Numbered from the stretch's first letter, positions 1-64,000 are shown. The stretch: DNA of 64,000 bases from an uncultured Thermoleophilia bacterium (GCA_963785875.1 CAWAWV010000006.1:53590-117589); one strand, 5' to 3'. The notes: generated by a model from the sequence alone, not told the origin. A program made the numbers and translations.

Positions 1-92
1 CGGGCGCGCGGACGACGAGCGCGTCGAGCTCGCTGCTCGGCCATCAGCGCGCGGACGCGGTCGAGCTTCGCGTCGTCGCGCGGCCAGGTCAC
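1..92 (-). pseudogene. M24-family peptidase (Xaa-Pro aminopeptidase/creatinase-type N-terminal domain), 5' fragment leaving the window, frame slip near nt 32
   Basis: The minus strand from GTG 92..90 reads VTWPRDDAKLDRVRALMAEQ. After a 1-nt slip it reads ELDALVVRAP, a typical M24 N-terminus. Only ~30 codons are visible. Confidence 0.4.
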
Positions 93-976
93 GCGCTCGC
101 CCCAGGGGCGGATCCGCGGCGGCGCCGGCTCGCCGTGCGCCTCCTGCCACGAGATGACCGGGTTGCGCAGCACGCCGATCCGCTCGATCTCGGCCTCGAT
201 CACGTCGCCCGGCTTCAGGTAGAGCGACGCGCGCCTCCGGCGGCTGAAGCCGGCGACGCCGGAGACGGTGCCGGTCGAGAGGACGTCGCCGGCGCTGTAG
301 CCGAGCGCCGAGAAGTGGCTGAGGATCTCCGGGATCGTCACGGACATCCGGCTCGAGTGCGACTCCTGCCGCGCCTCGCCGTTGACGCGCAGCTCATCGC
401 CAGGTCGTGCGGGTCGGGGATCTCGTCGGGCGTGACGATCCACGGGCCGAGCGGGCAGAACGTGTCGATCGCCTTGCAGAAGCTGAAGACGCCGGAGCGC
501 ATCTCGCCGCGCTGGATGTCGCGGGCGGTGATGTCGTTGAAGATCACGTAGCCGCCGATGTAGTCCGCCGCCTCCTCGGGCGAGAACCACTTGCCCGCCT
601 TGCGCAGGACGACGGCGAGCTCGAGCTCGTAGTCGAGCTCCTCGGTCAGGTGCTCCGGGTAGACGACCGGCTCGTCGGGGCCGACGATCGCGTCGACGTT
701 CTGGAAGAAGACGATCCACGGCGCGATCTCGTGCGACCAGTCGACGTTCTTCGACTCGTCCTCGTGCTCGCGGAAGTTGCCGGCCGTGTGGAAGAACTTC
801 TTCGGCACGATCGGCGCGCGCAGCGTCGCGTCCGCGAGCGGCGTGCGCTCGCCGCGCGTCGTCGGCGCCGCCGCGCTCGAAGTACGTCGCGCATGTCGGG
901 GACGTCGAGGCGCGACGATCTCCTCGCCGTCGATCCGGCCGACCTTGCCGTCGTCGTAGGTGACGAGCTTCATCAC
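89..976 (-). pseudogene. Fumarylacetoacetate hydrolase (FAH) family protein, frame broken at least 3 times
   Basis: ORF 338..976 carries FAH blocks (FFHTAGNFREHEDE, WIVFFQNVDAIVGPDEPVVYP, GYVIFNDITARDIQ, FCPLGPWIVTPDE). Codons ~20-45 are out of frame. The C-terminal third (LRVNGEARQES..TGTVSGVAGF..IERIGVLRNPV) continues in another frame. The 3' end is uncertain. Confidence 0.8.
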
Positions 977-2207
977 GACTCCGCAGACCGCTCATCGCCG
1001 CGAGAGCGTAGACGTGCGCCGTCTTCACGAGCCCGTCGATGTCGAGGTTCTCGCCGTAGGTCGATGTCGAGCAGGCCGGTCGACGTCCCGTAGTTGACCG
1101 TCGGGATGCCGTAGCGCGTCAGCGCCGAGGCGTCGGAGAACCAGCGCGTGACGTCGCGTGCCGGGCGGCTCGCCGAAGACCTCCTCGTGCGCGGCGTCGA
1201 GCGCCGCGACGAGCGGGTGGCCCTCGTCGATCTCGGCGCCCGGGGCGGTCACGTAGACCTCGCCCTCGACGCCGTAGTCGGGGAAGCGGCTCGGCGAGCG
1301 CCGCGCACCATGTCGAGCACCTCGCGCGCGCGCCACCGCCATCGGCTTCGTCGGCGGCACGCGGACGTCGAGGAAGAGATCGGTGCGGTGCGGCGTCCGC
1401 GAGACGCGCCAGCCGAAGCCGCCCTGGATCGCGCCGACGTTGACGATCGCCGGGCGCCGCGGTAGGCGTTCGCCGGGTCGTCCTCCCAGGTCGGGATCCA
1501 CTCGAGCACGGCGTCGAGCACCTCGCGCATGCGCAGGATCGAGTTCTGGTCGCGCTTGCCCTCGCTGAAGGCGGTGTGGATGAAGTTGCCGTGGCGTCGA
1601 GATGCGCAGCCAGAGCGAGCCGAAGTGGCCGAGCACGACCTTGCCTCGGTCGGCTCGCCGAGGATGCACATGTCGGCGACGCCGCCGTGCGAGACGAGGT
1701 AGCGCGTGCCGGCCGCGTAGCCGCGGAACTCGGCGCCCTGCGCGTCGCCGTACTGCGTCTTCTCGATCTCGCCGCAGACGGCCGCGATCAGCACGTCGCC
1801 GCGCAGCCGCACGCCCGCGTCCTGGAGCGCGCGCACCGCCTCGACGTAGCAGGCGAGCGCGCCCTTCATGTTCGAGATGCCGAGCCCGTAGAGGCGGCCG
1901 TCGCGTGACGAACGCGCTTCGGCTGGAACCCGCGCACGCCGGCGAGCCACGGCTCGCGGCCCGAGTACGAGGTGTCCATGTGGCCGTTGAACATCAGGCT
2001 CGGCCCGCCGCCGGCGCCGGGCCAGGTGCCGAGCACGTTGGCGCGGCCGTCCTCGACCTGCTGCCACTGCACCTGCAGGCCCATCTCGCTCGAAGAGCTC
2101 GGCCATCAGCTCGGCCATCGCCTGCTCGTCGCCGGTGAAGCTCGGCATGTCGATCGCCGCGAGGCCGGTCGCGACGAGCCGGTCCGGTCGATCGCGACCT
2201 CGATCAT
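973..2207 (-). pseudogene. M20-family metallopeptidase (ArgE/DapE/acylase-like), multiply frameshifted
   Basis: ATG 2207 overlaps the upstream stop (ATGA). The pieces lie in three frames: FTGDEQAMAELMAELF, NGHMDTSY (ORF 1866..2084), GLGISNMKGALACYVEAVRAL, GGVADMCILGEPT, AIVNVGAIQGGFGW and YVTAPGAEIDEGHPLVAALD (ORF 1025..1669). The 3' end is approximate. Confidence 0.75.
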
Positions 2208-3234
2208 CGGACGTGCGGCAGGACCTGCTCGGCGAAGAGGCGGATCTGCTCGTGGCGGTTCTCGCCCCACAGCTCGAGCATCACGTGCGTGCAGCCCGCG
2301 TCCCGGTACTCCTCGATCGCCGCGATGCAGTCGGCCGGCGTGCCGGCGATCGGCTTGCACTTGTCGAGCAGCGCGTCGGTCACCTGCTCCTTCGCGGCCA
2401 GCCGGCCGCCGCTGCTCCATCGCCTCGGCGACCGGGCGGATCTCGTCCTGCTCGATCCCGGCCAGGTCGAGCAGCGTGTCGGCGGCGCCCTGGATGTTCT
2501 GCACCTTGTTCGCGAGGTACATGCCGGCGATCTCGCGCGCGCCGTCGCGGCCCGCGTCGCGGTCGGTCGCGTGGATCGAGGCGACGACCGTGCAGCCGAG
2601 GTCGATGTCGGCCTGCACGTTCTCGCGCGTGTAGCGACGAACGCCGGCGTCGTGATCGACGGCGTCAGCAGCCGTCGCCGATCTCGCCGCCAGCGCCTGC
2701 ATCTTCGGCGCGGTCGCGGCGACGTAGACCGGCGGCACCTCCCGCGGCGCGTGGGCCTCGGCCTGCGAGCGCGGGCACGTCGGCGCTCCACGTCTCGCCG
2801 TCGTACTCGAAGCGCTCGCCGCCGAGCACGCCGCGCACGATCGTCGACCGCGTCGCGCATCGGCCCGAGCGTCTTCTTGGTCTGCGCTTCGTGTTGTTGA
2901 GGAAGATCTTCGACGTCCCGAACCCGAGCGATGAAGCGTCCCGGCCCGGCGGCCTCCTGCACGACCCGCGCGTCCATCGCGACCTGCACCGGATGGCGCG
3001 TGGACGCGGAGATGATCCCCCAGCCGATCGTCAGCTGCTCCGTCTCGCGCGCCATCAGCGCCGACACGACCGTCGACGAGCGCGCCTCCATCCCGTGCTT
3101 GCGCCACCACGGGTACGCCTCGGCGAGCCAGATCGTGTCGATGCCGCCGCGTCCATCGCGCGCGCCGACGCGAGCATCTCCTCGAGCGGCTCCATGGTGA
3201 GCTGCATGACGCCGATGCGGAACGGGACCGCCAC
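2204..3234 (-). pseudogene. LLM-class (luciferase-like) flavin/F420-dependent oxidoreductase, multiply frameshifted
   Basis: The N-terminus FRIGVMQLTMEPLEEMLASARAMD is in ORF 3055..3624. TIGWGIISASTRHPVQVAMDA and the C-terminus IAGTPADCIAAIEEYRDAGCTHVMLELWGENRHEQIRLFAEQVLPHVR are in ORF 2204..3091. The middle (~2450-2900) is in other frames. Confidence 0.75.
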
Positions 3235-3238
3235 GCGG

Positions 3239-3707
3239 CTACGCCCGCGACCGCGCTCCTGGACCTCGCGGTCGAGCGCGTGCAGAGCACGTGCGCTACC
3301 TGCTGGTTGACGATCGGCTGCAGCACCCGCTGGCCCATCGAGCCGACCGGGCCGGCGATCTTCACGTCGGCCGCCCAGTTCATCAGCGTGCCCGCGCCGT
3401 CGACGCTCGGCGAGGTCGAACGAGGTCTGCATCGAGATCATCGCGCCGACGCCCGTTGCCCTTGATCTCGAGCTGGAGCGTACTCCAGCTCGCGCTCCTC
3501 GACCTTCTCCATGTCGATCTTCATCCTCAGGCCGCCGAGGCCGAGCGGGATCTTGACGTTCGCGGTCCAGCGCGGTCGCGTCGTGGACGTCGAAGCTCTC
3601 GACGCCGGGCATCGTCTTCGCCATCGACGCCGGGTCGTTCAGGACACCGCCAGACGGCCTCGCGCGGCGCCGCGAACGTGCGCTCGCCCGAGACGTTCAG
3701 CGTGCAT
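3239..3707 (-). pseudogene. CoxG-like SRPBCC protein (carbon monoxide dehydrogenase subunit G family), frameshifted
   Basis: The SRPBCC/CoxG pattern is spread over three minus frames: LNVSGERTFAAPREAVW, NDPASMAKTMPGVESFDVHDAT and MNWAADVKIAGPVGSMGQRVLQPIVNQQVAHV. ATG 3707 overlaps the large-subunit stop (TGATG). Confidence 0.6.
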
Positions 3708-6166
3708 CACCGCGACGCGCGCGCCCGCTCGCCGGGTCGCTGGAGCATCTCCCACACGCGGTGGTACGGGTTACAGCTGTCGTAGACGATCGCGCCGCCG
3801 TGGCCGCGCAGCGCGTCCTGCACCGCGGCGCAGATCGCGTGGATGCCCGCGCCGCCGCCTTCGCCCATGCCCTTCGTGCCGAGCGGCGTGAACGGCGACG
3901 GCGCTCTCGACGCAGCCGGTGCTGAAGCGGCGGCATGTCGAGCGCGTGCGGCACGTGGTAGTCGTAGAAGTTCGGGGTGAGCAGGTTGCCGTCCTCGTCG
4001 TAGGCGAACTTCTCGTGCATCGCCGCGCCGAGCGCCTGCGCCGTCGCGCCCATCACCTGCCCCTCGACGATCTGCGGGTTGATCCGCTTGCCGCAGTCGT
4101 CGACGGCCGCGTAGTCGACGATGTCGTAGGAGCCGGTCTCGGGATCGATCTCGATCACCGCCGCGTGGATCTGTGTCGGCGTACGTGAGCGTCAGGTTCC
4201 CGTACTTCCGCTCGACGTCGGGCACCTCGAACGGCGGCCGGTAGACGTAGCGGCAGTTGAGCGTGACGCCGAGGTCCTCCGGCAGGCCCGCGTTGTTCGC
4301 GTTGATGATCGCGCCGCACGCCATGAAGGGCAGGAACGCGTCCGGGCTCTCCTTGATCCGCGACGCCGCCCTCGGCCAGCTCGAGCGCCTCCGCAGGCAC
4401 GCCGCCGAAGATCGCGCCGGCGAGCTTGAAGATCTCGTCGCGCAGCATTTCCGTCGCGCCCTTCACCGCGCTCAGGCCGGTGACCGCGAACTGCGACGCG
4501 TAGGTGCCCGAGAAGCCGGCGTGCGAGTTCCAGTACGAGTCGTGGCCGGCGCGCACGTACACGTCGTCGACCGAGCACTTGAGGATGTCGGCGACGACCT
4601 GCGCCGCGGTCGTCTCGTGGCCCTGGCCTTGCGGCGTCGTGCCGAGCGTGACGACGATCTCGCCGAAGATGTCGAGCTTGACGGTCGCCACCTCGTTGTT
4701 GCCCGAGAACTGCAGCTCCGGGTTGATCATTCGCGACTGGCCGAAGTTGTTCGTGCCCGAGTCGAGCGTCGAGCCGATCCCGAGGCCGAGCAGCTTGCCG
4801 CGGGCTTTCGCGTCGGCGCGCTTCGATTCGATCGACGGGTAGTCGACGAGGTCGAGCGCGATGTCGAGCATCCGCGCGTAGTCGCCCGAGTCGTAGACGC
4901 AGCCGTTCGGCGTCGTGTACGGCATGTCCTCGGTCTCGCACGTAGTTGCGTTTCCGAATCTCGACCGGGTCGAGGCCGAGCTCGTGCGCGACGATGTCGA
5001 TGATCCGCTCGGTGAACCAGAGGTGCTGCATCCGCGAGTAGCCGCGGTTCGGCGACACGGCGCCTTGTTCGTCGCGACCTGGGTGAAGTCGACGCGGATG
5101 TTCTGCCAGCGGTACATCCCGGGGGTCACCTGCGCCCAGATGACGCCGCCGAGCGGCTCGTAGCGCAGGTACGCGCCCGCGTCGTCGAGCGCCTTCGTCC
5201 GGAAGCCGAGCAGCGTCCCGTCGCTGCTTGACCGCCACCTCGGTCTCGTGGAACCAGCGCTCGTTGCCGTGCGACATCGACAGGTGGAAGTCGGTGCGCC
5301 ATTCCGTCCACTGGACCGGCCGGTTCAGCTTGCGCGCGAGCAGGCAGCACGCGACGAGCTGCGGATGCGAGGTGATCTTGTTGCCGAAGCCGCCGCCGAT
5401 GTCCTGCGTGACGAAGCGAAGCTTGTCGAGCCCGCACCGCATCGCCGGCCCCATCATGATGATCGCGAAGCCGGGGAACTGGTTGTTCGTCGTGATCGTC
5501 CACTGGCCGGTGCCGCGGTTGTACTCGACGAGCGCGCCGTCGCATTCGAGCGGCGTCGAGTTGAAGCGGTGGAAGTGGAGCTCGTCGATCTTCACGATCT
5601 TGTCCGCCTCGGCGAACGCAGCGTCGAGGTCGCCCCACTCGTACAGGCCGTGCCACATCAGGTTGCCGCCGGCGTCCTCGTGGATCGTCGGCACGCCGTC
5701 GGCCTGCGCGTCGCGTGCGTCGGTGATCGCGTCGAGCGGCTCGTACTCGACCTCGACGAGCTCTGAGGCGTCGCGCGCTGCTTCGCGCGTCTCCGCGACC
5801 ACTGCGACGATCGGCTCGCCGACGTAGCGCACCTTGCCGACCGCGAGCGCGTAGTCCTTCACGTTGGCGCCGGGCACCGACGCGATCTGGAAGAACGGGT
5901 CGGTGAGGGCGGCGACCTCCTCGCCGGTGAGCGTCCCGTAGACGCCCGGATGCGCCTCGGCGGCCGAGACGTCGATCGAGGTGATGTGCGCGTGCGCGTA
6001 CGGCGAGCGGACGAAGTGCAGGTAGCCCATGCCGTGGCGCTTGACGTCGTCGACGAAGACGCCCTGTCCCTGGACGAGACGGCGGTCCTCCTTGCGCGGG
6101 ACGCTCTGGCCCGGCCCAGGTCTCCTGCGCCCGCTCGACCTGCTCCGGTGCAATGGTCGTGCTCAT
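3707..6166 (-). pseudogene. Molybdopterin-dependent hydroxylase large subunit (xanthine dehydrogenase/CoxL family, not form-I CODH), at least 5 frame changes
   Basis: ATG 6166 overlaps the small-subunit stop (ATGA). Blocks present: SVPRKEDRRLVQGQGVFVDDV, VRYVGEPIVAVVAE, GGGFGNK, TTPQGQGHETTAAQVVAD, AVDDCGKRINPQIVEGQVMGA and GTKGMGEGG. They are taken from ORFs 5126..6325, 4192..6153, 4155..5129, 3697..4158 and 3707..4324. Confidence 0.85.
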
Positions 6167-6630
6167 TCGGACGCCGCCTTGACGGCTTCGAAGATGTTCC
6201 AGTAGCCGGTGCAGCGGCAGATGTTGCCCTGCAGCGCCTTCTTGATCTCGTCGTCGGACGGGTGCGGGTTCTCGCGCAGCAGCGCGGTTGCGCTCATCAG
6301 CATCCCCGGCGTGCAGTAGCCGCATTGCAGCGCGTGGTGGTCACGGAACGCCTGCTGCAGCTTGTTCAGCTCGTCGCCGTCGGCGAGGCCCTCGACCGAC
6401 TCGATCGTTGCGCCGTCGGCCTGGACGGCGAGCATCATGCAGCTCTTCACGAGCGTGCCGTCGACGATCAGCGAGCACGCGCCGCAGTTGCCGGTGTCGC
6501 AGCCGATGTGGCTGCCGGTCAGGTCGAGGTCGTCGCGGACGAAGTGGATCAAGAGCTTCCGCGCCTCGACCTCGCGCTCGTAGGTCGTGCCGTTGATCGT
6601 GACGGTGATCGACCGCTCGGTCGAGCTCAT
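6163..6630 (-). CDS. (2Fe-2S)-binding small subunit of the molybdenum hydroxylase (CoxS/XdhC-type)
   Basis: These are the last 155 codons of ORF 6163..7431, from ATG 6630. They read MSSTERSITVTINGTTYE.., then GCDTGNCGACSLIVDG and ALQCGYCTPGMLMS..GNICRCTGY, the two [2Fe-2S] cysteine motifs. The frame is uninterrupted. Confidence 0.9.
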   Translation of the reverse strand: MSSTERSITVTINGTTYEREVEARKLLIHFVRDDLDLTGSHIGCDTGNCGACSLIVDGTLVKSCMMLAVQADGATIESVEGLADGDELNKLQQAFRDHHALQCGYCTPGMLMSATALLRENPHPSDDEIKKALQGNICRCTGYWNIFEAVKAASE

Positions 6631-7431
6631 GCGGCTCCTCGGGCTTGCGTTGACTGCGCGAACGGCGAGCACCTCGGCCAGGTGGCGGCGGTAGTCGCTC
6701 GACGCGTGGACATCGGACGGCGGCTCGAGGCTCGCGCCGCGCACGGCCTGCGTGACGGCGTCGGCGTCGCTCGAGCCGGGCGTGAGCACGACCGGCACCG
6801 CGTCGACGCACCCGAGCGCGATGCGCACACTGCCGTTCAACGAAGCGGCAGCGCTTGCGATGCAGGTCCCATCCACGCCTAGCGTGACGGCGGCGAAACC
6901 ATCGTTACGCCCAGGCGGAATCGTCACCTTCGTCAGCAGCTCGCCTGTGCCGACCGCGGTCAGGTAGACACCGAGGAAGAAGTCGTCCGACGAGACAGTG
7001 CGATCCCCGCCCGCGGCGGCGATCGTGAACTCGGCACCGAGCGCGGCGAGGAGCGGCGGGAGGTGGTTCGTCGGGTCGTTCGTGCAGACGTTGCCGCCGA
7101 TCGTGCCTCGGTTCCGCACCTGGACGTCTGCGATCTGCGAGCAGACCTCGCCGAGGATCGGGCGGGCGCGCGCCTCGCTCGAGGCCATGATCTCCGTGTA
7201 GGTCGCCATCGCGCCGATCTCGAGTGTGCCGTCGGCCCGAGCTCGATTCCCTTCAGCTCGTCGAGCCCGTTCAGATCGATGAGCGCGTCGGGCGAACCGG
7301 CCCGCGCCTTCATCACGTTGATGAGGGTCTGCCCGCCGGCGAGGGCGCGGGCGCCGTCGTTCGCGGCGAGCAGCCTCGAGCGCCTCGGCGACGGATGACG
7401 GCTTGGCGTATTCGACCTCGCGGAGAAGCAT
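6627..7431 (-). pseudogene. FAD-binding medium subunit of the molybdenum hydroxylase (CoxM/XdhB-type), compensated frameshift pair
   Basis: Blocks present: MLLREVEYAKPSSVAEALE, then QTLINVMKARAGSPDALIDLNGLDELKGIEL in another frame (ORF 6960..7316), then DGTLEIGAMATYTEI, VRNRGTIGGNVCTNDP and SDYRRHLAEVLAVRA. No stop separates it from the small subunit in the 422-aa ORF. An alternative-frame stop lies at 6627. Confidence 0.85.
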
Positions 7432-7442
7432 CTCAGGGAGTT

Positions 7443-8690
7443 TTATAAAATGTCTGATCGGTCCGGCGCAAGTCGGTAACCGATCTCGGGGGGAGCTGGC
7501 TCGCGGAGGCTGCGTACAGGTGTCCAGGCACCGTACAGTGGCTCAGTCGGAGACATGCCGACACCGGATGTCGCCAGGAGTCCGTGTTTCGCGAGACCAG
7601 CGAGGACGGCGTCGATGTCGTCCTCGGTGTTGTAGGCGTGCGGTGAGACGCGCAGGTTCGAGTCGCGCTCGGAGGTGACGATCCCGTCGTCGCCGAGCGC
7701 GGTGACGAGCGCCGGGCGCATCGGTCGAGCGGATGCACACGAGCGCGCCGCGGCGGACCGCCTCGCGCGGCGTCACGACCGTGCCGCCGAGCTCGTCGAC
7801 GCCGGCGATCAGCCGCTCGTTGAGCGCGTTCACGTGCTCACGCGTCTCGGCGATCCCGATCTCCTCGCATCAACTCGATCCCCGCGATCCCCGCGTAGAT
7901 CGCCGGCACCGGCGGCGTCCCCGACTGCCAGCGGCGCGCGTTCGGCGCCGGCGCAGTAGCGCGGTGTGGGCCATCTCGAAGATGTCGCGGTCGGCGAACC
8001 AGCCCGTCTCCGTCGGCGTCAGCTCGTCGGCCAGGCCGGGCCGGGTCCAGAGGAAGCCGAGCCCCGCCGAGCCGAGCAGGTACTTGAGCACCCCCGCCGC
8101 GAGCGCGTCGACGCCGAGCTCCCGCACGTCGAGGGGATACGACCCGACCGCCTGGTAGGCGTCGAGCAGGCACAGCGCGCCGCGGTCGTGGGCGATCCGC
8201 GCGATCTCCTCGACCGGCAGCCGCGCGCCGTTGCGGTAGCAGACGGCAGTGACCGAGACGACGGCCGTGCGCTCGTCGATCGCCTCGTCGACCTGCTCGG
8301 GCGGGACGACGTGACACCTCCGCACCGCGCAGCTGCTGCGCGTGCCAGATCTGGCCGATCGTCGGGAACTCGTAGTCGCTGATCACGACCTTCGGGCGCT
8401 GCGGTGAAGTCGATTGCGGACGCGAGCGCGCTGACGCCCGCGGACAGCGACGTGGTCACAGCGACGTCGTCCCGCTCCGCGTTGATCAGGCCCGCGAACG
8501 ACGTTCGGGCCGCCTCGGTGCGCTCGACCCAGTAGTCCCACGGTGCGCCCCGCTCGTCCCAGCCGGTCAGGTAGTCGCCGTACGCGGCGCGCACCGCATC
8601 CGACAGTGCGCCTTGCGAGCACGAGTTGACGTAGACGAGCCGCTCGAAGATCGGGAACCGCGACGGCACCGGCACGTCGCTAACGCCCAA
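7443..8690 (-). pseudogene. Class-V (PLP-dependent) aminotransferase / cysteine-desulfurase-like enzyme, multiply frameshifted
   Basis: Blocks present: VYVNSCSQGALSDAVRAAYGDYLTGW (ORF 8019..8690), VSVTAVCYRNGARLPVEEIARIAHDRGALCLLDAYQAVG and AAGVLKYLLGSAGLGFLW (ORF 7870..8325), and VSPHAYNTEDDIDAVL (ORF 7443..7721). The exact 3' end is uncertain. Confidence 0.75.
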
Positions 8691-9397
8691 GGTAGGCCTT
8701 ACGCAGGTCGTCGTTCTCGCGCAACTCGGCCGCCTTTCCCTCGAGCACCAGTCGTCCGGTCGAGAGGACGTAGCCGCGGTCGGCGATCGAGAGCGACACG
8801 TTCGCGTTCTGCTCGACGACGAGAATCGCGACGCCGGACTCGTGGACCTGCTTGATGATCTCGAAGTTTCGCTCGACGAGGATGGGCGCGAGCCCCATCG
8901 ACGGCTCGTCCATCAGGAGGAGCTTCGGCCGCGACATCAGCGCGCGCCCCATCGCCACCATCTGCTGCTCGCCGCCCGAGAGCGTCCCTGCAAGCTGGGA
9001 GCGCCGCTCGTGCAGCAGCGGGAAGAGCTCGTAGACGCGGTCGAAGTCCGCCTTGTCACCGCCGCCCCGGAGGTAGGCGCCCATCTCGAGGTTCTCGAGC
9101 ACGGTCATCGGCGCGAAGAGCCGGCGGTTCTCGGGCACGATCGCGATCCCGCGCGCGATGCGGTAGCTCGTCGGGCGTCTCGTCACGTCCTCGCCGGCGA
9201 GCACGAACAGCGCCGGCGCGCGGCTTGACGATTCCGAGGATCGTCTTCAGCGTCGTCGACTTACCCGACGCATTGCCACCGAGTAGGCAGACGAGCTCCC
9301 CTTCGCCGACATGGATCGAAAGCCCCTGCAGGATGCGGATCTGCCCGTAGTACGTGTCGACGCTCTGCAGTTCGAGCAACTGGCCGTTGGCGCTCAT
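8680..9397 (-). pseudogene. livF: Branched-chain-amino-acid-type ABC transporter ATP-binding protein (LivF type), single frame break near nt 9215
   Basis: ORF 9056..9397 gives LELQSVDTYYGQIRILQGLSIHVGEGELVCLLGGNASGKSTT (Walker A). ORF 8680..9204 gives [15 protein letters not shown] and LLLMDEPSMGLAP (signature, Walker B). The two pieces join at KPRAG / LFVLAGEDV. Confidence 0.85.
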
Positions 9398-10179
9398 TTC
9401 GACGACATGCTGTTCAGGCCGAGGTACGCCTCGACGACCTTCTCGTTCGTCGCCACGTGCTCGAACGAGCCCTCTGCGATCTTGACGCCGTGGTCGAGCG
9501 CGACGACGCGGTCGGAGATCCCCTCGACGACGTGCATGTCGTGCTCGATCACGAGGATCGTGTAGCCGCCTTCGGCGCGCAGCTGTCCGATCAGCTCCGA
9601 GATCTCGTGGGTCTCCGTCGGGTTCATCCCGGCCGCGGGCTCGTCGAGTAGGAGCAGCCTCGGGTTGGTCGCGGTCGCCCGGGCGATCTCGAGCCGGCGC
9701 CGGTTCGCGTACGAGAGTGAGTACGCCGGCTGGTCCCAGCGGTAGCCCATGAGCCGCTGGCCGAAGAACGCGAGCCGCTGCCGTGCGAGCTCCTCGATCT
9801 CCCGCTCCTCGCGGCGCATTCCCGGCGTTCGGACCATCGACCGCACCATTCCAGCCCTGGTGTGGCCGTAGGCGGCGGCCATCACGTTCTCTTTGACCGA
9901 CATGTTCAGGAACAGCCGCAGCGTCTGGAACGTCCGCGAGATCCCGCGGCAGCAGATCTGGTGGGGCTCCAGGCCGACGATGCTCTGGCCGTCGAAGTGG
10001 ATGTCGCCGGCCTGCGGCCGGTAGATGCCGGTGACGAGGTTGAAGAGCGTCGTCTTGCCCGCGCCGTTCGGCCCGATCACCGACACGATCTCGCCTTCGT
10101 CGACGTGCAAGTCCAGCGAATCGACGACCGTCAGGCCCCCGAACGACAGTGAGACGTCGTGGAGCTCGAGCAACCTCAT
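9394..10179 (-). CDS. livG: ABC transporter ATP-binding protein (LivG type)
   Basis: These are the last 262 codons of ORF 9394..10842, from ATG 10179, which overlaps the livM stop (ATGA). Blocks present: MRLLELHDVSLSFGG, GPNGAGKTTLFN, LSYANRRRLEIARA and LLLLDEPAAGMN. The frame is intact. Confidence 0.9.
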   Translation of the reverse strand: MRLLELHDVSLSFGGLTVVDSLDLHVDEGEIVSVIGPNGAGKTTLFNLVTGIYRPQAGDIHFDGQSIVGLEPHQICCRGISRTFQTLRLFLNMSVKENVMAAAYGHTRAGMVRSMVRTPGMRREEREIEELARQRLAFFGQRLMGYRWDQPAYSLSYANRRRLEIARATATNPRLLLLDEPAAGMNPTETHEISELIGQLRAEGGYTILVIEHDMHVVEGISDRVVALDHGVKIAEGSFEHVATNEKVVEAYLGLNSMSSK

Positions 10180-11639
10180 ACGATCTCCACGCGCCGCTCG
10201 CCGAGCAGCCCGTTCGGCCGGAGGATCATCAGCACGATCAGGATCACGCCGAGGATGATGTACCGGGTCGGCTCTGGCTTCGACAGCATGACGTTCTCCC
10301 ACACGAACGCCCCCAGGTAGAGCGTCGGCACGAGGGCGAGGTCGCGCACGATGCCGCGCAGCATCGTGCACAGGAGCGCCGCGGCGATGACGCCGACGTA
10401 GGTCACGGGAGCGATCCAGCGCGCGGGATGCGAGGGCGCAACGACCCAGTGCTGGACGAACTGAGCGAACGAGCCGTCGTCCGGCAAGCCGGCGACCCAG
10501 GTCGAGTCGATTCCACTCGCGATCGCGTGCGCCACGAACCCGAACGCCAATGTCGCGACAGCGACAACCGCGATCCTTGGCCGGCGACGGCTCAGCAGCG
10601 CCAGAGTGCCGACCAGAACGACGAAGAACGCGACTCGCGACTTGTCGGCATCCCGCAGCAGCTCGAGGAGCGGGCTGATGATCAGCGCGCCGAGGACGAC
10701 GCCCGCCTGGTTCCCCGAGCCGCCGAGGATCACCATCGTGTAGATCGTGATCAGCGTCACGAAGTAGAACGAGAGCGGGAAGACATTCCCGTAGAGCGCC
10801 GCGTACAGCGTGCCCGTGAGGGCGGCGACCGCCGCTCCGCACGAGAAGCTCATCAGCTTCAGCCAGTTCACCGGCATCCCCATCGCCTCAGCGGCCAGCG
10901 GGTCTTCCCGGAGCGACCGCCACGCGCGTCCCGTCCGCGACCTGTTCAGCAACCGCAGCGCGACGAAGACGACGACGAAGACTGCCAGTGCGAGGTACAG
11001 GTACGAGACCGCGAACACCCCATTGTGCTCCGGTCTCAGCTTGTAACCGCCGGGCAGGCCGAACGGGTCGACGTTGAGGATCCCGAACGGGCCGCCGGTC
11101 ACGTGCTGCCAGTTCGTCGTCACGGTCTGGAACAGCTGTAGGAAGAACAGGGTGACGATCGCGAGGTAGTCGCCCGTCAGCCGCCACGACGGCAGGCCGA
11201 GCAGGAGGCCGACGACCGCGCCGGCGGCGACGACGAGCGGAACGGAGACGAGGGTGGGCAGATGGATCCCGTAGTGCGGCGAGTCGAGCAACGCGTATGC
11301 GTAGGCGCCGATGCCGTAGAAGGCGACGTACCCCAGGTCGAGCAGGCCCGCCCAGCCGACCACGACGTTGAGGCCGAGCGCGAGGAGCATGTAGAGCACC
11401 GTGCTGAAGGCGACCTGACGCACGTAGCCGCCGGTCTCCACGACCGGGAACAGGCAGAAAGCGCCGACGAACAGGGTGAGCCACGCCCACCAGGGCACCG
11501 AGCGCAGCCGCCGCTCGACGCCGGCGAACCGAGCCGGCAGGAACCGCACCTCGGCGTGCCGCGCAACCCACTCGTCCTGGCCGATCGCCGGGCCTTCAGC
11601 GCCGGTCGAATGGAACCCGTGCGGGGTCGAATCCGACAT
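10176..11639 (-). CDS. livM: ABC transporter permease (LivM type, long N-terminal extension)
   Basis: This is an intact 487-aa ORF that is multi-pass hydrophobic. The block LNVVVGWAGLLDLGYVAFYGIGAYAYALL is typical of LivM permeases. Confidence 0.9.
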   Translation of the reverse strand: MSDSTPHGFHSTGAEGPAIGQDEWVARHAEVRFLPARFAGVERRLRSVPWWAWLTLFVGAFCLFPVVETGGYVRQVAFSTVLYMLLALGLNVVVGWAGLLDLGYVAFYGIGAYAYALLDSPHYGIHLPTLVSVPLVVAAGAVVGLLLGLPSWRLTGDYLAIVTLFFLQLFQTVTTNWQHVTGGPFGILNVDPFGLPGGYKLRPEHNGVFAVSYLYLALAVFVVVFVALRLLNRSRTGRAWRSLREDPLAAEAMGMPVNWLKLMSFSCGAAVAALTGTLYAALYGNVFPLSFYFVTLITIYTMVILGGSGNQAGVVLGALIISPLLELLRDADKSRVAFFVVLVGTLALLSRRRPRIAVVAVATLAFGFVAHAIASGIDSTWVAGLPDDGSFAQFVQHWVVAPSHPARWIAPVTYVGVIAAALLCTMLRGIVRDLALVPTLYLGAFVWENVMLSKPEPTRYIILGVILIVLMILRPNGLLGERRVEIV

Positions 11640-11642
11640 CGG

Positions 11643-12572
11643 TCAGACCTTCCGGATGTCCGGCCGCCCGAGCAGGCCCTGGTGACGAAACACCATCAGC
11701 AGGACGAGCCCCGAGAAGACGTAGAGGTCCGACCACTGCGTGCCGTTGGGCACGTAGCCCTGCACATACGACTCGCCGAAACCGAGAACCAGCCCCCCCA
11801 GCATCGCCCCGGGGATGGAGCCGATTCCGCCGACCACGGCCGCGATGAATCCCTTCAGCCCGGCGATGAAGCCGATCGACACGTTCGTCGGCACGCGCAG
11901 CGCGAACATCACGCCCGCCGCGCCTGCGAGCGCCGAGCCGAGGACAAAGGTGAAGACGATCACGCGGTCGATATCGATGCCCATCATCGCCGCCGCCTCG
12001 CGGTCGTACGACGTCGCCCGCATCGCCTTGCCCGTGCGGGTCTTGTTCACAAGCAGCCACAGGATCACCATCAGCACGAACGCCGCGACGATCGTGATGA
12101 TGCGTAGCAGCGGAACCGTGACGCCGGCGATGTGCAAACCCCTCAGGTACAGCGCGCCGGAGTGGTACTGGAACAGGTCGTAGTTGCGCGGCGTCGCACC
12201 GAACAGGAGCTGCATCGAGTTCGCCAGGAAAAACGAGACGCCGAGCGCGCTGATCAGCGGTGCGATCCGCGGCGCGTCGCGCAGGGGCCGGTAGGCGAAC
12301 CGCTCGATCACGACCCCGAGGGCGGCGCACACGGCCATGGCCGTGAGCGTCACGAGGGTGATCACGAGCCAGATCGGCACCTTCGGATCCGCGGGGCCAC
12401 CGAGCGCCTGCAGGACCCCGAAGCCCACGAACGACCCGACCATGAACACGTCGCCGTGCGCGAAGTTCAGGAGTTTGAGGACGCCGTAGACCAGCGTGTA
12501 CCCGAGCGCGATGAGCGCGTAGACGCTCCCGAGCGTGAGGCCGTCGACGGTGAGCTGGATGAACTGGTCCAC
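11643..12572 (-). CDS. livH: ABC transporter permease (LivH type)
   Basis: This is an intact 309-aa ORF. Its N-terminus MDQFIQLTVDGLTLGSVYALIALGYTLVYGVLKLLNFAHGDVFMVG is the canonical LivH N-terminus. Confidence 0.9.
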   Translation of the reverse strand: MDQFIQLTVDGLTLGSVYALIALGYTLVYGVLKLLNFAHGDVFMVGSFVGFGVLQALGGPADPKVPIWLVITLVTLTAMAVCAALGVVIERFAYRPLRDAPRIAPLISALGVSFFLANSMQLLFGATPRNYDLFQYHSGALYLRGLHIAGVTVPLLRIITIVAAFVLMVILWLLVNKTRTGKAMRATSYDREAAAMMGIDIDRVIVFTFVLGSALAGAAGVMFALRVPTNVSIGFIAGLKGFIAAVVGGIGSIPGAMLGGLVLGFGESYVQGYVPNGTQWSDLYVFSGLVLLMVFRHQGLLGRPDIRKV

Positions 12573-12592
12573 GTCCGGGGGTTTCTACCTGC

Positions 12593-12627
12593 GACGGGGC
12601 GGTCCGGCGGTCCCGGACCGCCCCGTC
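12593..12627 (-). terminator. Perfect 15-bp stem / 5-nt loop hairpin between the binding-protein gene and livH (intercistronic attenuator or mRNA-stabilising element)
   Basis: The sequence is GACGGGGCGGTCCGG-cggtc-CCGGACCGCCCCGTC. It lies 19 nt after the binding-protein stop and 21 nt before the livH start. There is no U-tract. Confidence 0.5.
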
Positions 12628-12645
12628 GAGGTCAGCTGTCGGCGC

Positions 12646-13830
12646 TCAGCCGACGAGCTTGTATGAGCCGTTGGACTGGATCTGGAAGATGTAGAACTTC
12701 GCGTTCAGCGGGTCGTTCGACTTCGTCGACCACTTGAACGATCCACCCAGGATCCAGTTCTTGATCTGGACCTTCTTGAACGTACGGAACACGGCGAGGC
12801 GCGTCGTCGAGCCGTTGCCCGCCTTGCACGCTTTCGAGATCGCCGTCATCGCGATCTGGGCGGCCCCGTAGCTCGGCGGCCCGAACGAGCCGACGGGCTT
12901 CCCGGGGTTGTCCTTCTTCCAACCGGCGATGAGCTTCGCGTCGGCCGGGATGCCGGTGATGTCCGGCGCGAAGTTCGAGACGTACGAACCGGGCTGCTTG
13001 AACTGCGAGGAGTCGTTCGAGCCGTCGCCGCCGAACACCTTCGCCTTCTTGCCCTGCTCGATCAGCTGCTGGGCGAACGTCTGCGCGTCGGCCGGCTTCT
13101 GGGTCGGGAAGAAGACGATGTCGGCGTCGTTCGGGACCTTCGTCACGTAGGCCGAGTAGTCGGTCGTCGTGTTCGGCACCGAGAGCCTCGTCGTCGAGAC
13201 GCCTGCCTTCGACAGCGCGTTGTCCACGCCGGCCGCGAGGCCGAGGGAGTACGGCTCCTGGAAGTCCAGGATCACGACCTTCTTCACCTTCAGGTTCTTG
13301 ACCATGAAGTTGGCGTCCGAGGGCCCCTGAATGTAGTCACCGGGGACATCTCGGAAGAATGCCGCCGTCGCCTCGCGCTTCGCCGACGGGCCCTTGGTGA
13401 AGTCGGTGCGGGTCGCCGACGGCGAGATGTGTGCGAGCTTGGCCGCGAAATAGGTCTTGCTCGAAACCGCAACGCCACCCGAGGTCGAGGGGCCGAGGAT
13501 CGTGAGCACGCTCTTGTCGCCGACGTACTTCTGCGCAAGCGTCTGCGCAGGAGCAGCGCCTTGCTCGACCGGCGTGTCGCCGCCGACGAGCTTCACCTTC
13601 AGGCCGAGACCGCGAGCGAGGGTCTTCACGGCATACTTCGCCCAGCTCATCTGCTCGGCGCCGAGAAAGCCGGCACCGCCGGTCAGCGGCGTGACGAACG
13701 GCAGCGTGATCGTCTTCTTACAGTTGAAGCTCGCCGTGGAGCGCGCCGCGCTGGTCTGGCTGCCCTGCGCACTCGCCGCGACCATCGAGGTGGCGAGCAC
13801 CGCGAACGCGAGGGCGATCGCCTTCTTCAT
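12646..13830 (-). CDS. ABC transporter substrate-binding protein (Leu/Ile/Val-binding, type I periplasmic binding fold)
   Basis: The call comes from ORF 12646..13917. I moved the start to ATG 13830, which has GGAGG 8 nt upstream. The N-terminus MKKAIALAFAVLATSMVAASAQG is a signal peptide. The frame is intact. Confidence 0.85.
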   Translation of the reverse strand: MKKAIALAFAVLATSMVAASAQGSQTSAARSTASFNCKKTITLPFVTPLTGGAGFLGAEQMSWAKYAVKTLARGLGLKVKLVGGDTPVEQGAAPAQTLAQKYVGDKSVLTILGPSTSGGVAVSSKTYFAAKLAHISPSATRTDFTKGPSAKREATAAFFRDVPGDYIQGPSDANFMVKNLKVKKVVILDFQEPYSLGLAAGVDNALSKAGVSTTRLSVPNTTTDYSAYVTKVPNDADIVFFPTQKPADAQTFAQQLIEQGKKAKVFGGDGSNDSSQFKQPGSYVSNFAPDITGIPADAKLIAGWKKDNPGKPVGSFGPPSYGAAQIAMTAISKACKAGNGSTTRLAVFRTFKKVQIKNWILGGSFKWSTKSNDPLNAKFYIFQIQSNGSYKLVG

Positions 13831-13952
13831 GTACAGGTCCTCCTTGCCCGGGGGCAGGTTGTTTCGGGGGGTCAAGCGCTGAGCGACGATCATGTTCCGT
13901 CGCGCTTTCGGTGTCAATGATCAAATCTCGATCAACCGTTTAGGCTGGCGCG

Positions 13953-14612
13953 GTGGAGTACGCGCTGCACGCCGACGACCGTCCCGACGGGCGCCTCTTC
14001 GAGGTCGGGGTGTTCACGCAGCGGCTGCTGGATCTGGCGGGACCCCAGCGCGACGACGGAGCCGACGAGGTGCTCTACGTGGTGTCGGGAGCCGGCCGCA
14101 CGCGAATAGGTGCCGATGAGCACGAACTCCGACCCGGCATGGCCCTGGTCGTGCCGGCCGGTACCGAGTGGTCCGCGGACGGCGACGCACGCGCCGTATC
14201 GGTACTCGTTCACGATCCCGAGCCCTCCGGGAGGCCTACCGTCGTCGATTGCGAGGCGGTCGAGAAGGGGACCGCGACCGCCGGCCGCCAGTTCGTGCTC
14301 GGCGCGCCGTGCCCCTCGGCGACGCAGTTCATCGGCCTCATACCGCCGGGGCGGGCGCCGGACCATTTTCATCGCTACGACGAGGTGATCTACGTGCTGG
14401 AGGGCGAGGGGTACCTCGAGATCGGCGGGGAGCGGGCGCCGATCCGCCCCGGCACGTGCATCCATCTGCCAAGAACGATCGTGCACAGCCTGGCGAATAC
14501 AGGCGAGCGTGAGATGCGCGTGCTCGGGGTCTTCCGCCCCGCGGGCTCGCCGGCCGAGGCGTACTACCCGGACGGCACTGCCGCCGTCGTCCCCACGAGC
14601 GAGGAGAGCTGA
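13953..14612 (+). CDS. Bicupin-domain protein
   Basis: This is an intact 219-aa ORF with two cupin cores: EVLYVVSGAGRTRIG..ALVVPAGTEW and HFHRYDEVIYVLEGEGYLEIGG..CIHLPRTIVHSLAN. Confidence 0.7.
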   Translation: MEYALHADDRPDGRLFEVGVFTQRLLDLAGPQRDDGADEVLYVVSGAGRTRIGADEHELRPGMALVVPAGTEWSADGDARAVSVLVHDPEPSGRPTVVDCEAVEKGTATAGRQFVLGAPCPSATQFIGLIPPGRAPDHFHRYDEVIYVLEGEGYLEIGGERAPIRPGTCIHLPRTIVHSLANTGEREMRVLGVFRPAGSPAEAYYPDGTAAVVPTSEES

Positions 14613-14615
14613 GCG

Positions 14616-15038
14616 ATGCCGCACATCGAGCGCACGATCGACATCGTCTGGGAAGGAAACGTCGCCCGCGGCAACGGGACGATCACCGGCCGCAGCGGCG
14701 CATTCACCGACCTCCCGTTCTCCCTGCCGTCACGCATCGCGGTCGCTCAGGGCAAGACGAGCCCCGAGGAGCTGCTCGCCGCGGCGCACGCTGGGTGCCT
14801 CACGATGTCGATCGCGGGCGAGTTGACCGGCGACGGAACCCCGCCCGAGCGACTCGAGGTGACGTGCACGATCGTGATGGACGAGGTCGAGGGACAGGGT
14901 CACGAGATCGTCGCGTCGCACGTGACGATCTCCGGCGACGAGATCTCGGACGAGATCATCGAGCGTGCCGACCAGGGCTGCCCGTTCTCGCGCCTGCTCA
15001 AGAAGGCAGGCGTCGAAGTCACGATCAGTCGCTCCTGA
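14616..15038 (+). CDS. osmC: OsmC-family peroxiredoxin
   Basis: This is an intact 140-aa ORF. It has the OsmC pattern with two conserved Cys (AAAHAGCLTMS, ADQGCPFS). It starts 4 nt after the bicupin gene. Confidence 0.85.
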   Translation: MPHIERTIDIVWEGNVARGNGTITGRSGAFTDLPFSLPSRIAVAQGKTSPEELLAAAHAGCLTMSIAGELTGDGTPPERLEVTCTIVMDEVEGQGHEIVASHVTISGDEISDEIIERADQGCPFSRLLKKAGVEVTISRS

Positions 15039-16131: not shown

Positions 16132-16137
16132 CAGTGG

Positions 16138-17331: not shown

Positions 17332-17389
17332 GTACGTCGTCCTTGGCTCCGGGGAACGCTAGTCCTTCCGCGAAAGCTACCCTCGACGG

Positions 17390-18352: not shown

Positions 18353-18355
18353 CGC

Positions 18356-20029: not shown

Positions 20030-20031
20030 GG

Positions 20032-20958: not shown

Positions 20959-20997
20959 GGCGGCCCAGCCTACCGCCGTCAGCCGGCCGTCACTCGG

Positions 20998-21402
20998 TCA
21001 GGCTGCAGCGACCTCCTGCGTGCAGAACGCGCAGCGGCGCGCGCCGATCGGGATCTGGCTCAGACAGTGGGGGCACTCTCGCGTCGTCTCGTCGACCGGC
21101 TGCTCCGTCCGGTAGCGCTGCATGAGCGCGTTCACCGGCCTGACGACCAGGAAGAACACGACTGCGGCGATCACGACGAACGAGATCAGCGCGTTGAAGA
21201 ACGACCCGTAGAGGAACCGGCTGCCGTTGATGCTGAACGTCAGGCTCGCAAAGTCTTGCTGCCCGCCGATCGCGGCGATGAGAGGAGTGACGAGGTCGGC
21301 CACGAGCGCCGTCACGACCGCACCGAAGGCAACGCCGATCACGATGCCGACGGCCATATCTACGAGGTTGCCGCGAAGCAGAAACTCCTTGAAGTCCTTC
21401 AA
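20998..21402 (-). CDS. mscL: Large-conductance mechanosensitive channel MscL with C-terminal zinc-ribbon
   Basis: The call comes from ORF 20998..21432. The likely start is TTG 21402, with AAGGAGG 5 nt upstream. The N-terminus LKDFKEFLLRGNLVDMAVGIVIGVAFG is the canonical MscL N-terminus. The tail is ECPHCLSQIPIGARRCAFCTQEV. Confidence 0.85.
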   Translation of the reverse strand: MKDFKEFLLRGNLVDMAVGIVIGVAFGAVVTALVADLVTPLIAAIGGQQDFASLTFSINGSRFLYGSFFNALISFVVIAAVVFFLVVRPVNALMQRYRTEQPVDETTRECPHCLSQIPIGARRCAFCTQEVAAA

Positions 21403-21538
21403 CGTGACCTCCTTGGACGATGACCGGCGCATCCTTCCACCAGACAGAAGTCTGCGCAGCTCCGGTCGATTCGCGCCCTGCCCGTTCGTCGTCTGGGAGA
21501 CGGTCGGATCTGCCGGCCGCGACCGAAGGAGGAGTTAC

Positions 21539-21886: not shown

Positions 21887-21953
21887 AGCGACCGACAGAG
21901 CCTCGGGGGCGCCGAGCGAGCCGGCGTCCCTCGAGGTGCTCGCCCCCGCGCCG

Positions 21954-51466: not shown

Positions 51467-52408
51467 GGCGTCAGTTGGCCGTCCGCGAGACCGAGACGAC
51501 GCGGCGGCGCGAGAGGATAGAGCAGCGCGACGATCGCGAGCACGAACGGCGCCGCCGACCGGTAGGTCGAGACGTCGCGTAGGGCGTGAGGACCGACTGC
51601 GCGAGCCCGACGGCGAGGCCGCCGAAGAGCGTCGCCCAGAGCGAGCGCAGCCGGCCGATCAGCGCCGCCGCGAGCGACGAGATGACGAGGAACGTGAGCG
51701 CCGAGTAGTCGAGCGACGTGAGCAGGTCGGGCAGCAGGAGCCCGGCGGCGCCGCAGGCGAGCCCCGAGCCGAACCAGGCCGCCGCCTCGACCTGCGCACG
51801 GGCACGCCGAGCGTCGCGGTGATCTCGCGGTCGTTCGCGAGCGCCCGCATCGCGGTGCCGAGCTTCGTGACGCGCAGGAAGATCGCTGACCGCCGGCGGT
51901 GAGCGCGAGCGCGAGCGCGAGCGAGATGATCTGCGTCAGGTTCACGTTCGTGCCGAGCGATCGTGTAGCGGTGCTGTCGAGGTGGGGAGCGGCAGGAAGC
52001 GCGCGAACGCGCCGCCGGCCGGCGCCCGCCAGCGCCATGACGCCCGAGCAGGATCAGCGCGAGGCCCGAGCGTCCCCATCATCTTCACGAGCGGGTCGCG
52101 CCGCGCGAAGGCGGGGCCGAAGACCATGCCGTAGGCGAGGTTGCACGACCCCGCCGAACAGCGACGCAGATCGTGTAGGCGAGCCAGTGCGGCCAGCTCG
52201 TGTGGTTGACGAGGTAGTAGGCGATCAGGGCGCCCGCGGCGCCGATGGCGCCGAACGCGAGGTTCAGCACCCCGGTGGCCTGGTAGAGCACGACCAGCCC
52301 GACGCCGGAGAGCGCGTACACGCCCCCGAACGCGAGGCCGATCACGATGAACGGCTTGAGGAACTCCCAGTCGACGCCGAACACGCTGAACGCGAGCAGG
52401 TCAGTCAT
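51463..52408 (-). pseudogene. LivH-type ABC permease (second importer), frameshifted
   Basis: ORF 52085..52408 gives MTDLLAFSVFGVDWEFLKPFIVIGLAFGGVYALSGVGLVVLYQATGVLNLAFGAIGAAGALIAYY. The C-terminal half lies in ORF 51463..52038 and neighbouring frames. Confidence 0.8.
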
Positions 52409-62523: not shown

Positions 62524-62564
62524 CAGCGTGTTCTACATGTTCGGACAGCTGTAGCGCCCAGCAC

Positions 62565-63609
62565 TCAACGGTCGACCCTGACGACGGCTTTCATCACCTC
62601 GGTGCGGTGGGTCATCGCGTACTCGATCGCCGCCGGGGCATCGTCCAGGCCGAACTCGTGGGTCAAAAGCTTGGCCGCGGTGTCGCGCCGGCGGGAGACG
62701 AGGTCGACGGCGTCGACGAACTCGCTCGCGCGACAGCAGCTCGACCCGAGCACGTCCACCTCCTTCAGCGGCAGATCGCCCACGCGCATCGGGGTGCGCT
62801 CGCTCGAGAGGCTGACGACGACGCACGCGGCCGGCGTTTGCCACGATGTCCACCGACACCTGCGCGAGAGCGGCAACGCCAGTCGCCTCGAGCACCACCG
62901 CCGGCCCGTCGCGTCCCGCCCATTCCCGTGCGGCTGCGACGAGATCGCCATCGGGGGCGAGCTCGAGCACGTCCGCTCCGATCGCCTCGCCAAGGCGAAG
63001 CCGGCTCCCGACCGCGTCGACGAGCAGCACCGAGGCGCCGCGGTCGGTCGCTGCCAGCGCAAGGGCCTGGCCGATCGGACCCGCGCCGAGGACGACCACC
63101 CGCTCACCGGCTTCCACCCTCCCCCGAGCGACAGCGCGAACGGCGATCGAGACCGGCTCGACGAGCGCGGCCAGCCCCGGATCGAGGTCTCCGACGGCGA
63201 AGACCTGTGCCGCAGATACCAGCAGCTGGTCTTGCAGCGCACCGTCCTCATGCACGCCGATCAGCGCGATGTCGACGCATGCGTTCGGGCGGCCGACGCG
63301 GCAGGCGAAGCAGCGGCCGCAGCCCGAGACGGGCCAGAGCGCCACGCGCAGCCCCGGCACGAGCTCGGGCGAACAGCCCTCGCCGACGTCAAGGATCGTC
63401 CCGGCGGCCTCATGGCCCTGGATGCGTGGGTACAGCGACGACGGGTCGTCGATCGTGCCGAGGTCGCCCAGGAAGTAGTGGAAGTCCGATCCGCAGAGAC
63501 CGACGGCCTGCGGTTGCACGAGCACCTGGCCGGGACCGGGCGCGCCGGGCTCGGGCACCGACACGACCTCCATGACTCCCCGCGACCGGGTCACGGCTGC
63601 CCGCATCAT
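62565..63609 (-). pseudogene. Zinc-type medium-chain dehydrogenase (threonine/sorbitol dehydrogenase-like), one frame break near nt 62830
   Basis: ORF 62533..63630, read from ATG 63609, gives MMRAAVTRSRGVMEVVSVPEP..GLCGSDFHYF..GHEAAGTILDVGEG..CGRCFACRVGRPNAC..VVVLGAGPIGQ. The C-terminus (LKEVDVLGSSCCRASEFVDAVDLV..IEYAMTHRTEVMKAVVRVDR) is in ORF 62565..63251. Confidence 0.8.
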
Positions 63610-63663
63610 GCCCACCGGCTGATCGAACACCCTCGACGACGCGTGCGCAACAACGGCAACACC

Positions 63664-64000
63664 TCAACGAGCCGGCGGCTCGGGCACGCCCAGCTCGTCC
63701 TGGAGCTCGATGCCGAGCGCGAGCAGATCCCAGTCGGACGCAGCAGGCCCGATCAGCGAGACACTCACGGGTAATCCGCTCACGGCGCCGACGCCGGCCG
63801 GCAGCGCGACGACCGGGAAGCCCGTCCAGTCCCAGAAGTGCGTCAGGGAGATGAGCGCGTAGTCGGTGCCCGCGTGCGCGTACCCGTCGCCGCGACGCGG
63901 TGCGACGACCGGGATCGTCGGCTCGAGCACGGCGCTGATGCGGTGCTCGTCCAGCCAGTCCGCCCAGGCCGCGGTCGTCGCTCGCCGTCGGGCTTGCACC
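63664..64000 (-). CDS. Amidase-signature-family protein, 3' part only (gene continues beyond the window end)
   Basis: ORF 63664..63999 gives LISLTHFWDWTGFPVVALPAGVGAVSGLPVSVSLIGPAASDWDLLALGIELQDELG, a typical amidase (GatA-like) C-terminus. Confidence 0.7.
   Translation of the reverse strand, partial: VQARRRATTAAWADWLDEHRISAVLEPTIPVVAPRRGDGYAHAGTDYALISLTHFWDWTGFPVVALPAGVGAVSGLPVSVSLIGPAASDWDLLALGIELQDELGVPEPPAR

Follow-up and report, generated by a model that had tools for sequence, protein, structure and literature searches.

Runs of interrupted genes are known from pseudogene-rich genomes such as those of Mycobacterium leprae and recent host-restricted symbionts, where real decay is accompanied by nonsense mutations, deletions, raised substitution rates, lesions common to strains and eroded codon bias. 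Watson and Warr reportedly found in 2019 that consensus indel errors in long-read assemblies fragment gene calls. Where polishing is patchy or an assembly is hybrid, the draft is kept in places without reads and raw consensus bridges accurate contigs, as with Medaka, Pilon, Unicycler and OPERA-MS. The window analysed here is a stretch of 64,000 nucleotides (nt) from a contig of an uncultured soil actinobacterium of the Thermoleophilia (GCA_963785875.1, CAWAWV010000006.1:53590-117589). It consists of two flanks (1-9204 and 23561-64000) laden with small insertions and deletions (indels) that break the genes, and of a clean central block of at most 14.36 kb (9205-23560) with 18 intact genes. We put at roughly 0.7 the probability that this is a consensus-quality artefact of a Flye-type assembly of long metagenome reads, unevenly supported or polished.

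The window is similar to the long-read consensus errors described for Nanopore and PacBio data (PMC9262707; 10.1101/2021.08.23.457338) in its many frame-shifting 1-nt indels, in the family-like peptides between them and in the link to sequencing technology. Such indels fragment gene calls and depend on coverage, fading as it increases, and homopolymers are stressed as their context (PMC9262707). Unlike these typical errors, those of the window are insertion-biased and not associated with homopolymers. Their density is also 10 to 100 times that of related long-read metagenome-assembled genomes (MAGs), and the error-free 14.3 kb in the middle of the sequence is a further difference. The sharp switch between error-free and error-rich sequence, which ignores gene and operon boundaries, may be likened to patchy polishing or to a hybrid patchwork, but a single clean block of 1.5 kb or more is found in the 64 kb of the window. 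With M. leprae-type genomes it shares the many consecutive interrupted genes and none of the features of real decay.

Frame breaks along the window

Frame breaks were counted with our own frameshift-aware protein-to-DNA aligner, run against intact orthologues from short-read assemblies. Reference open reading frames (ORFs) were selected on their codon-position GC and on the type of assembly, spurious off-frame and antisense ORFs being common at 70% GC. A few off-frame references were left after this selection, and in-frame "stops" from those references were discounted. Internal frameshifts number 39 over the 7,934 nt aligned in the left flank (4.9 per kb) and 144 over the 21,026 nt aligned in the right flank (6.8 per kb), while no genuine frameshift was found in the 18 genes of the centre (13,216 nt aligned, with five small genes checked in an added alignment); the density is thus not flat. 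The few central events that were scored are no more than about 30 nt from a gene junction (11640, 12573, 14615, 16135, 17332, 21400 and 21535), places at which the reference ORF, defined from stop to stop, has a tail upstream. The flank rate predicts about 90 events in 14.3 kb, and the chance of finding zero is about e^-90.

A codon-usage Viterbi path trained on the central genes changes frame on the same strand 33 times in 1-9.3 kb, 92 times in 23.5-64 kb and three times in the centre, each of these three at a gene junction. The codon position with the highest GC shifts every 150-450 nt in 1-9.2 and 23.5-64 kb and is constant across whole genes in the centre. Alignment at the DNA level to contigs of relatives (given here as L numbers) yields 47 gaps in 5.3 kb of the left flank against L008 (88.9% nucleotide identity) and 73 gap openings in 3.1 kb of the right flank against L167, that is, 9 to 23 per kb. 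Gap counts taken directly from blastn at about 80% identity are too noisy for a comparison of flank and centre, owing to compensating gaps in divergent DNA, and the metagenome relatives of the MTHFR-like gene (61-70% identical) are too distant to map indels base by base in most of the right flank. The original prediction, made from the sequence alone, was that indel-type breaks fill both flanks and are absent from a central block of 14.3 kb. The Viterbi path with codon-position GC, the frameshift-aware alignment and the DNA alignment all agree with it.

The density in the flanks is uneven and ranges from about 3 to 23 per kb. On the left, the stretch 2.2-4 kb has about 14 per kb and the stretch 4-9.2 kb about 4; on the right, gap openings number 23 per kb in 23.5-26.6 kb, and the sequence beyond has 4-13 frameshifts per kb. 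An earlier estimate of 2-8 frame segments per flank gene is too low, because the gene at 44109-46056 has 25 frameshifts and that at 39460-41031 has 19. The flanks had been described as saturated with breaks, and they are densely broken, but 62822-64000 (minus strand; at least 1.18 kb) is in a single frame on the Viterbi path. This stretch holds residues 1-270 of an alcohol dehydrogenase (ADH) and the next gene, and so long a run without a break would hardly be expected where errors are as dense as in its surroundings. Residues 8-270 of the ADH can be aligned colinearly to alcohol dehydrogenases in the PDB, and the match stops at the break at 62821. The stretch may be the start of another clean region running past the end of the window. 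As had been foreseen for the ORF track, gene calls beyond about 9.2-23.5 kb are unusable.

Compared with their orthologues, all 18 central genes are full length and in one frame (72-100% amino acid identity), including the small ones at 21.5-23.3 kb. The reading of each central gene in a single frame is thereby confirmed, with 18 genes in place of the estimated 20 or so. They are livG, livM, livH, livK, and genes for a cupin, OsmC, a CoA-transferase, NlpC/P60, an HtrA-like protease, a cNMP-binding/pyridine-nucleotide oxidoreductase, an epimerase, MscL and a glyoxalase, followed by four small ORFs and cspA. The first intact gene, livG (9394-10179, minus strand), shares its operon with the broken livF, and 261 of its 261 residues are aligned in one frame with 92% identity to L008. 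The last is cspA (23063-23266, minus strand), whose product of 67 amino acids has an exact copy on seven other metagenome contigs and is 100% identical to that of L006.

Of the frameshifting indels specific to the window, the one nearest to the centre on the left is an insertion of 1 nt in livF, at about 9200 (9200-9204), seen in comparison with 37 of 54 relatives. The first insertion on the right is at 23561, and this edge is abrupt, the density climbing from 0 to 23 per kb over 200 nt. The left edge lies between livF and livG of one operon, so the clean block follows no biological unit. A search of the central block for an integrase, tRNA and repeats found none. A mobile element or genomic island was rejected for this reason and because the left edge is within the liv operon. 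Protein-guided frameshift correction was also rejected as the origin of the clean block, since it acts gene by gene and would have mended genes with good references, such as pobA and coxL.

The indels and the genes they break

All 183 frameshift events were scored as indels of 1-2 nt, with 144 insertion-type and 39 deletion-type events (3.7:1). In the two best DNA alignments, against L008 and L167, the single-base events comprise 75 insertions and 21 deletions. The inserted base is unlike both its neighbours in 79% of cases, compared with 46% for random insertion, and is G or C in 80%; homopolymer runs of three or more hold 2 of the 75 insertions. There is no strong motif at the insertion sites, apart from a slight preference for G where the preceding base is C. 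A homopolymer-driven error model was rejected on these figures, and the homopolymer context that had been suggested for the indels was not found when it was tabulated. The indels are private to the window, being absent from the consensus of up to 54 relatives and from L008, L009 and L167.

After frame repair the flank proteins are 66-90% identical to their orthologues, compared with 72-92% for the intact central ones, which bears out the earlier impression that the peptides between breaks are family-like. Window-specific substitutions at sites conserved among relatives are not raised, amounting to 1.4-2.9% in the flank and 3.3-3.9% in the centre. The absence of substitution-type stops also holds, as no convincing nonsense codon was found in the repaired frames. 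There are at most two doubtful in-frame stops, both beside indels; apparent in-frame stops occur in off-frame reference alignments or in short patches of low similarity next to indels. The codon-position GC bias (GC3 phase) is kept in the flanks. The process consists almost purely of indels and has left codon bias and protein similarity untouched.

The gene for the large subunit of a Mo-hydroxylase (CoxL-like; 3740-6337, minus strand) carries eight single-base indels, seven insertions and one deletion, with frameshifts at 6115, 5229, 5056, 4935, 4361, 4177, 3921 and 3902. When the CoxL orthologue of L008 (880 amino acids) is aligned to 3719-6337, 798 of 870 residues are identical and there are eight frameshifts and no stop codon; tblastn divides the gene into six frame segments. 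The last broken gene to the left of the centre encodes a livF-like ABC ATPase (8686-9379, minus strand), with tblastn matches in frame -1 at 9379-9221 and in frame -2 at 9156-8686.

In the right flank, pobA (4-hydroxybenzoate 3-monooxygenase; 23513-24700, minus strand) is split over four frames, positions 1-39, 45-126, 153-259 and 273-337 of the Pfam profile FAD_binding_3 being found on four ORFs in differing frames. The gene has 1188 nt compared with 1170 nt in orthologues, a net excess of 18 inserted bases, and PobA stitched by hand from three frames is 83% identical to the PobA of a Gaiellaceae MAG over 100% of its length. Its neighbours pcaC (CMD), pcaD (alpha/beta hydrolase) and pcaB (Lyase_1), recognised by Pfam at 24700-26900 (minus strand), are all frame-broken, and the order pcaB-pcaD-pcaC-pobA is kept as in L167 (87.6% nucleotide identity). 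The ligM-like aminomethyltransferase gene (GCV_T; 27313-28850, plus strand) has six deletion-type frameshifts (27746, 27886, 27921, 28532, 28680 and 28757), and positions 9-79 and 171-235 of the Pfam GCV_T profile are on separate ORFs. The splitting of the Mo-hydroxylase large subunit, pobA and ligM had been proposed from the ORFs and is supported in each case. The MTHFR-like gene P0026 (28793-30436, minus strand; Pfam MTHFR and DUF5981) is an open ORF with internal compensating indels, the alignment events being at 29306-29665.

The ORF at 24434-25066 (minus strand) has a complete CMD (PcaC) domain followed by the N-terminus of PobA in the same frame. In L167, pcaC and pobA overlap by 4 nt and are in different frames. 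The fusion of pcaC and pobA is artificial and was made by indels at 24700-24708. Start/stop overlaps had been thought to be intact, and at least this one is damaged.

Origin of the quality step

As a technology control, the four intact Liv proteins of the window were used as probes on 80 relatives (L007-L086). Among Gaiellaceae/Thermoleophilia MAGs, broken copies of liv genes constitute 22 of 129 (about 17%) in long-read MAGs with Flye names but 1 of 167 (0.6%) in short-read MAGs (Fisher p = 5.6e-8). Fourteen long-read loci have 37 insertion-type and 4 deletion-type events, compared with 0 events in the 56 genes of 14 short-read loci. These long-read loci are Microflora Danica (MFD) bins, and MFD bins are based on Nanopore sequencing, Flye and one round of Medaka (PMC12313526). 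The sibling ENA contig L001, about 90% identical to the window, has 17 single-base insertions and 5 single-base deletions, scattered in patches over genes whose counterparts in the window are intact. The insertion-biased signature shared with long-read relatives indicates that the signature of the window belongs to that assembly class, only far denser. The contig of the window may itself be linked to the Microflora Danica long-read set. Several of the long-read MAGs with broken liv genes (around locus positions 6500-13500) are GTDB species representatives.

In the explanation that we favour, the window would belong to a Flye-type contig, assembled from long metagenome reads of an uncultured member of the Gaiellaceae and then deposited. 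The consensus of 1-9204 and 23561-64000 would rest on too few reads or have been left essentially unpolished. Random single-molecule indel errors, affecting about 0.5-2.3% of bases and mostly consisting of one inserted G or C, would have survived there, and each of them would shift the reading frame. The stretch 9205-23560 would be well supported or properly polished, and hence its genes read through. The quality step might be caused by read depth, by a polishing chunk or by a segment in common with a close strain of higher abundance. High-GC Thermoleophilia MAGs from Nanopore, Flye and Medaka may carry a systematic single-base insertion error of G or C outside homopolymers, of which this contig would be an extreme case.

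Some observations weigh against this explanation. Both the low read support of the flanks and the long-read source pipeline of this particular contig are things that we infer. The error spectrum, biased towards insertions and not linked to homopolymers, is unlike the homopolymer deletions typical of Nanopore residue (PMC9262707). A density of 1-2% is far above that of related long-read MAGs (about 0.2-2 per kb), and an error-free stretch of 14.3 kb with an abrupt right edge is unusual for smoothly varying coverage.

Indel consensus errors were one of several artefacts considered in the original prediction, and the others fared less well. An in-silico origin after deposition is excluded, because an exact look-up finds the central proteins and the frame-broken ORFs P0026 and P0027 (58423-58749) recorded on one NCBI/ENA contig of 119,837 bp. 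A cross-taxon chimera is unsupported, as all three parts match Gaiellaceae best.

A patchwork or misjoin of very close Gaiellaceae strains, with an accurate piece of 14.3 kb joined to low-quality long-read sequence, is an unlikely alternative that still deserves consideration. The accurate piece would then come from a strain of greater abundance, from a contig built of short reads or from a segment that was polished on its own, and the 137-nt spacer between the cspA side and the pobA side (23369-23505) would be an assembly join. This spacer has no match in any relative: the homology to six metagenome contigs about 90% identical (L001-L006) ends at 23368 and that to L167 starts at 23506. The abrupt right edge fits such a join, with clean homology up to 23368, the first indel at 23561 and then 23 gaps per kb, and so does the higher GC of 23.5-26.6 kb (0.755, compared with 0.687 in the centre). 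The combination of cspA and pobA is unique to the window, since a lipoxygenase and not pobA is found beside cspA in the six relatives and other genes are found downstream of pobA in three pobA-side relatives. However, what lies downstream of pobA differs from one relative to another in any case, and the unique junction is therefore weak evidence of a join. Judged by its sequence, the junction looks like an ordinary terminator-plus-promoter spacer, in which two GC-rich hairpins (23400-23434 and 23481-23503) would be pobA terminators upstream of the cspA leader.

The left boundary also speaks against a patchwork. It has no synteny break, with 54-75 relatives colinear across it, and the nearest relatives (L008, L009, L071 and L012) are the same on either side. 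The identity rank correlations across it (0.65-0.75) are equal to those within each side, and the error density declines gradually towards it, from 14 to 4 to 0 per kb. The left flank as such is colinear with 20-75 Gaiellaceae relatives at up to 88.9% nucleotide identity, the nearest relatives being about 89-93% identical at the nucleotide level, and all parts of the window are Gaiellaceae.

In L167-L169 the corresponding pca and pobA genes have a GC of 0.70-0.73, below the 0.755 of 23506-26626; insertions of G and C explain only a few tenths of a point of the elevation. The GC of the central block (0.687) is close to that of its counterpart in L008 (0.686).

It is very improbable that composition alone drives the errors, the centre being clean through a lower GC than that of the flanks. 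The densest errors are indeed found in the GC-richest parts of the flanks, at 24-27 and 33-36 kb (GC 0.76-0.78, 11-23 per kb). However, flank sequence matched for GC (0.68-0.72; 3.7-9.2, 27.3-28.9 and 57.5-62.5 kb) still has about 3-8 frameshifts per kb, and the centre at 14-20 kb is without frameshifts at a GC of 0.70-0.72.

Real and recent wholesale pseudogenisation, with the centre kept by selection or restored by recombination, is scarcely credible. Nothing speaks for it except that the indels are in the deposited sequence and that the flank genes make up dispensable catabolic clusters. Bacterial gene decay is biased towards deletions, the opposite of the insertion bias found here. Moreover, 5 to 23 indels per kb are combined with essentially no nonsense substitutions and no substitution excess, while the codon-position GC bias is kept and the repaired proteins retain their similarity to orthologues. 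No indel is common to relatives, the boundary splits the liv operon, and the identical signature is found only in long-read assemblies of orthologous genes. Pseudogenisation was rejected because of the insertion bias, the lack of nonsense codons and excess substitutions, the private lesions, the operon-splitting boundary and the technology link. The view of the original prediction that the breaks are an artefact and not slow pseudogene decay is thereby upheld, whereas recent inactivation of an aromatic-catabolism region, which it had named as the consequence if the breaks were real, is contradicted. That small indels biased towards insertion arose in a burst across tens of kb without substitutions, and that 14.3 kb escaped it or were restored by recombination with an intact relative, has next to no probability, and a systematic error at the assembly level is the more likely of the two.

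Gene content and consequences for the organism

The GC of the window is 67-78%. The best matches of the central genes are in Gaiellaceae/Thermoleophilia MAGs, the LivM-like protein being 85-86% identical to those of L007-L009, and on sequence matches the left flank, the centre and the right flank are all assigned to Gaiellaceae (Thermoleophilia). The left flank contains Mo-hydroxylase/CODH-like genes, other genes and livF at the start of the liv transporter operon. The right flank is devoted to aromatic catabolism and other metabolism of the Gaiellaceae genome. Besides pcaB-pcaD-pcaC-pobA and the ligM-like and MTHFR-like genes, it has genes for an E1 dehydrogenase, a DUF5938 protein, a GMC oxidoreductase, ABC transporter parts, a thiamine pyrophosphate (TPP) enzyme and a zinc ADH.

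No Rfam family was found above threshold in the window. ARAGORN called a 90-nt tRNA-Leu(CAG) at 52194-52283 (plus strand) with the anticodon at position 33, at a site within minus-strand coding sequence. This call is probably a false positive, as no Rfam tRNA is above threshold.

Bacterial lipoxygenases are uncommon. In related contigs a lipoxygenase (PF00305, 628-632 amino acids) is encoded directly upstream of cspA (L001 7983-9869, L002 7984-9882, L003 7984-9882 and L004 2454-4352), and it is absent from this place in the window.

The protocatechuate cluster of L169 and L170 (L169 5819-11170) comprises pcaIJ, a pcaHG-like dioxygenase, pcaB, pcaD, pcaC, an amidohydrolase and pobA. In the window (23513-30436), pcaB, pcaD, pcaC and pobA adjoin the ligM-like aminomethyltransferase gene and the MTHFR-like gene. 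This arrangement suggests tetrahydrofolate-dependent O-demethylation of lignin-derived aromatics.

The pattern is a matter of data quality and not of biology, and the ORF track cannot be used outside about 9.2-23.5 kb. Completeness estimates, pseudogene counts and protein clusters derived from the contig are polluted, and P0026 and P0027 are already in public protein collections. The frequency of broken liv genes in long-read MAGs has some practical value for users of soil MAG catalogues. This kind of error differs from the homopolymer type usually targeted by polishing and correction tools. For the organism itself, it would be wrong to call its protocatechuate/4-hydroxybenzoate, O-demethylation or Mo-hydroxylase genes pseudogenes.

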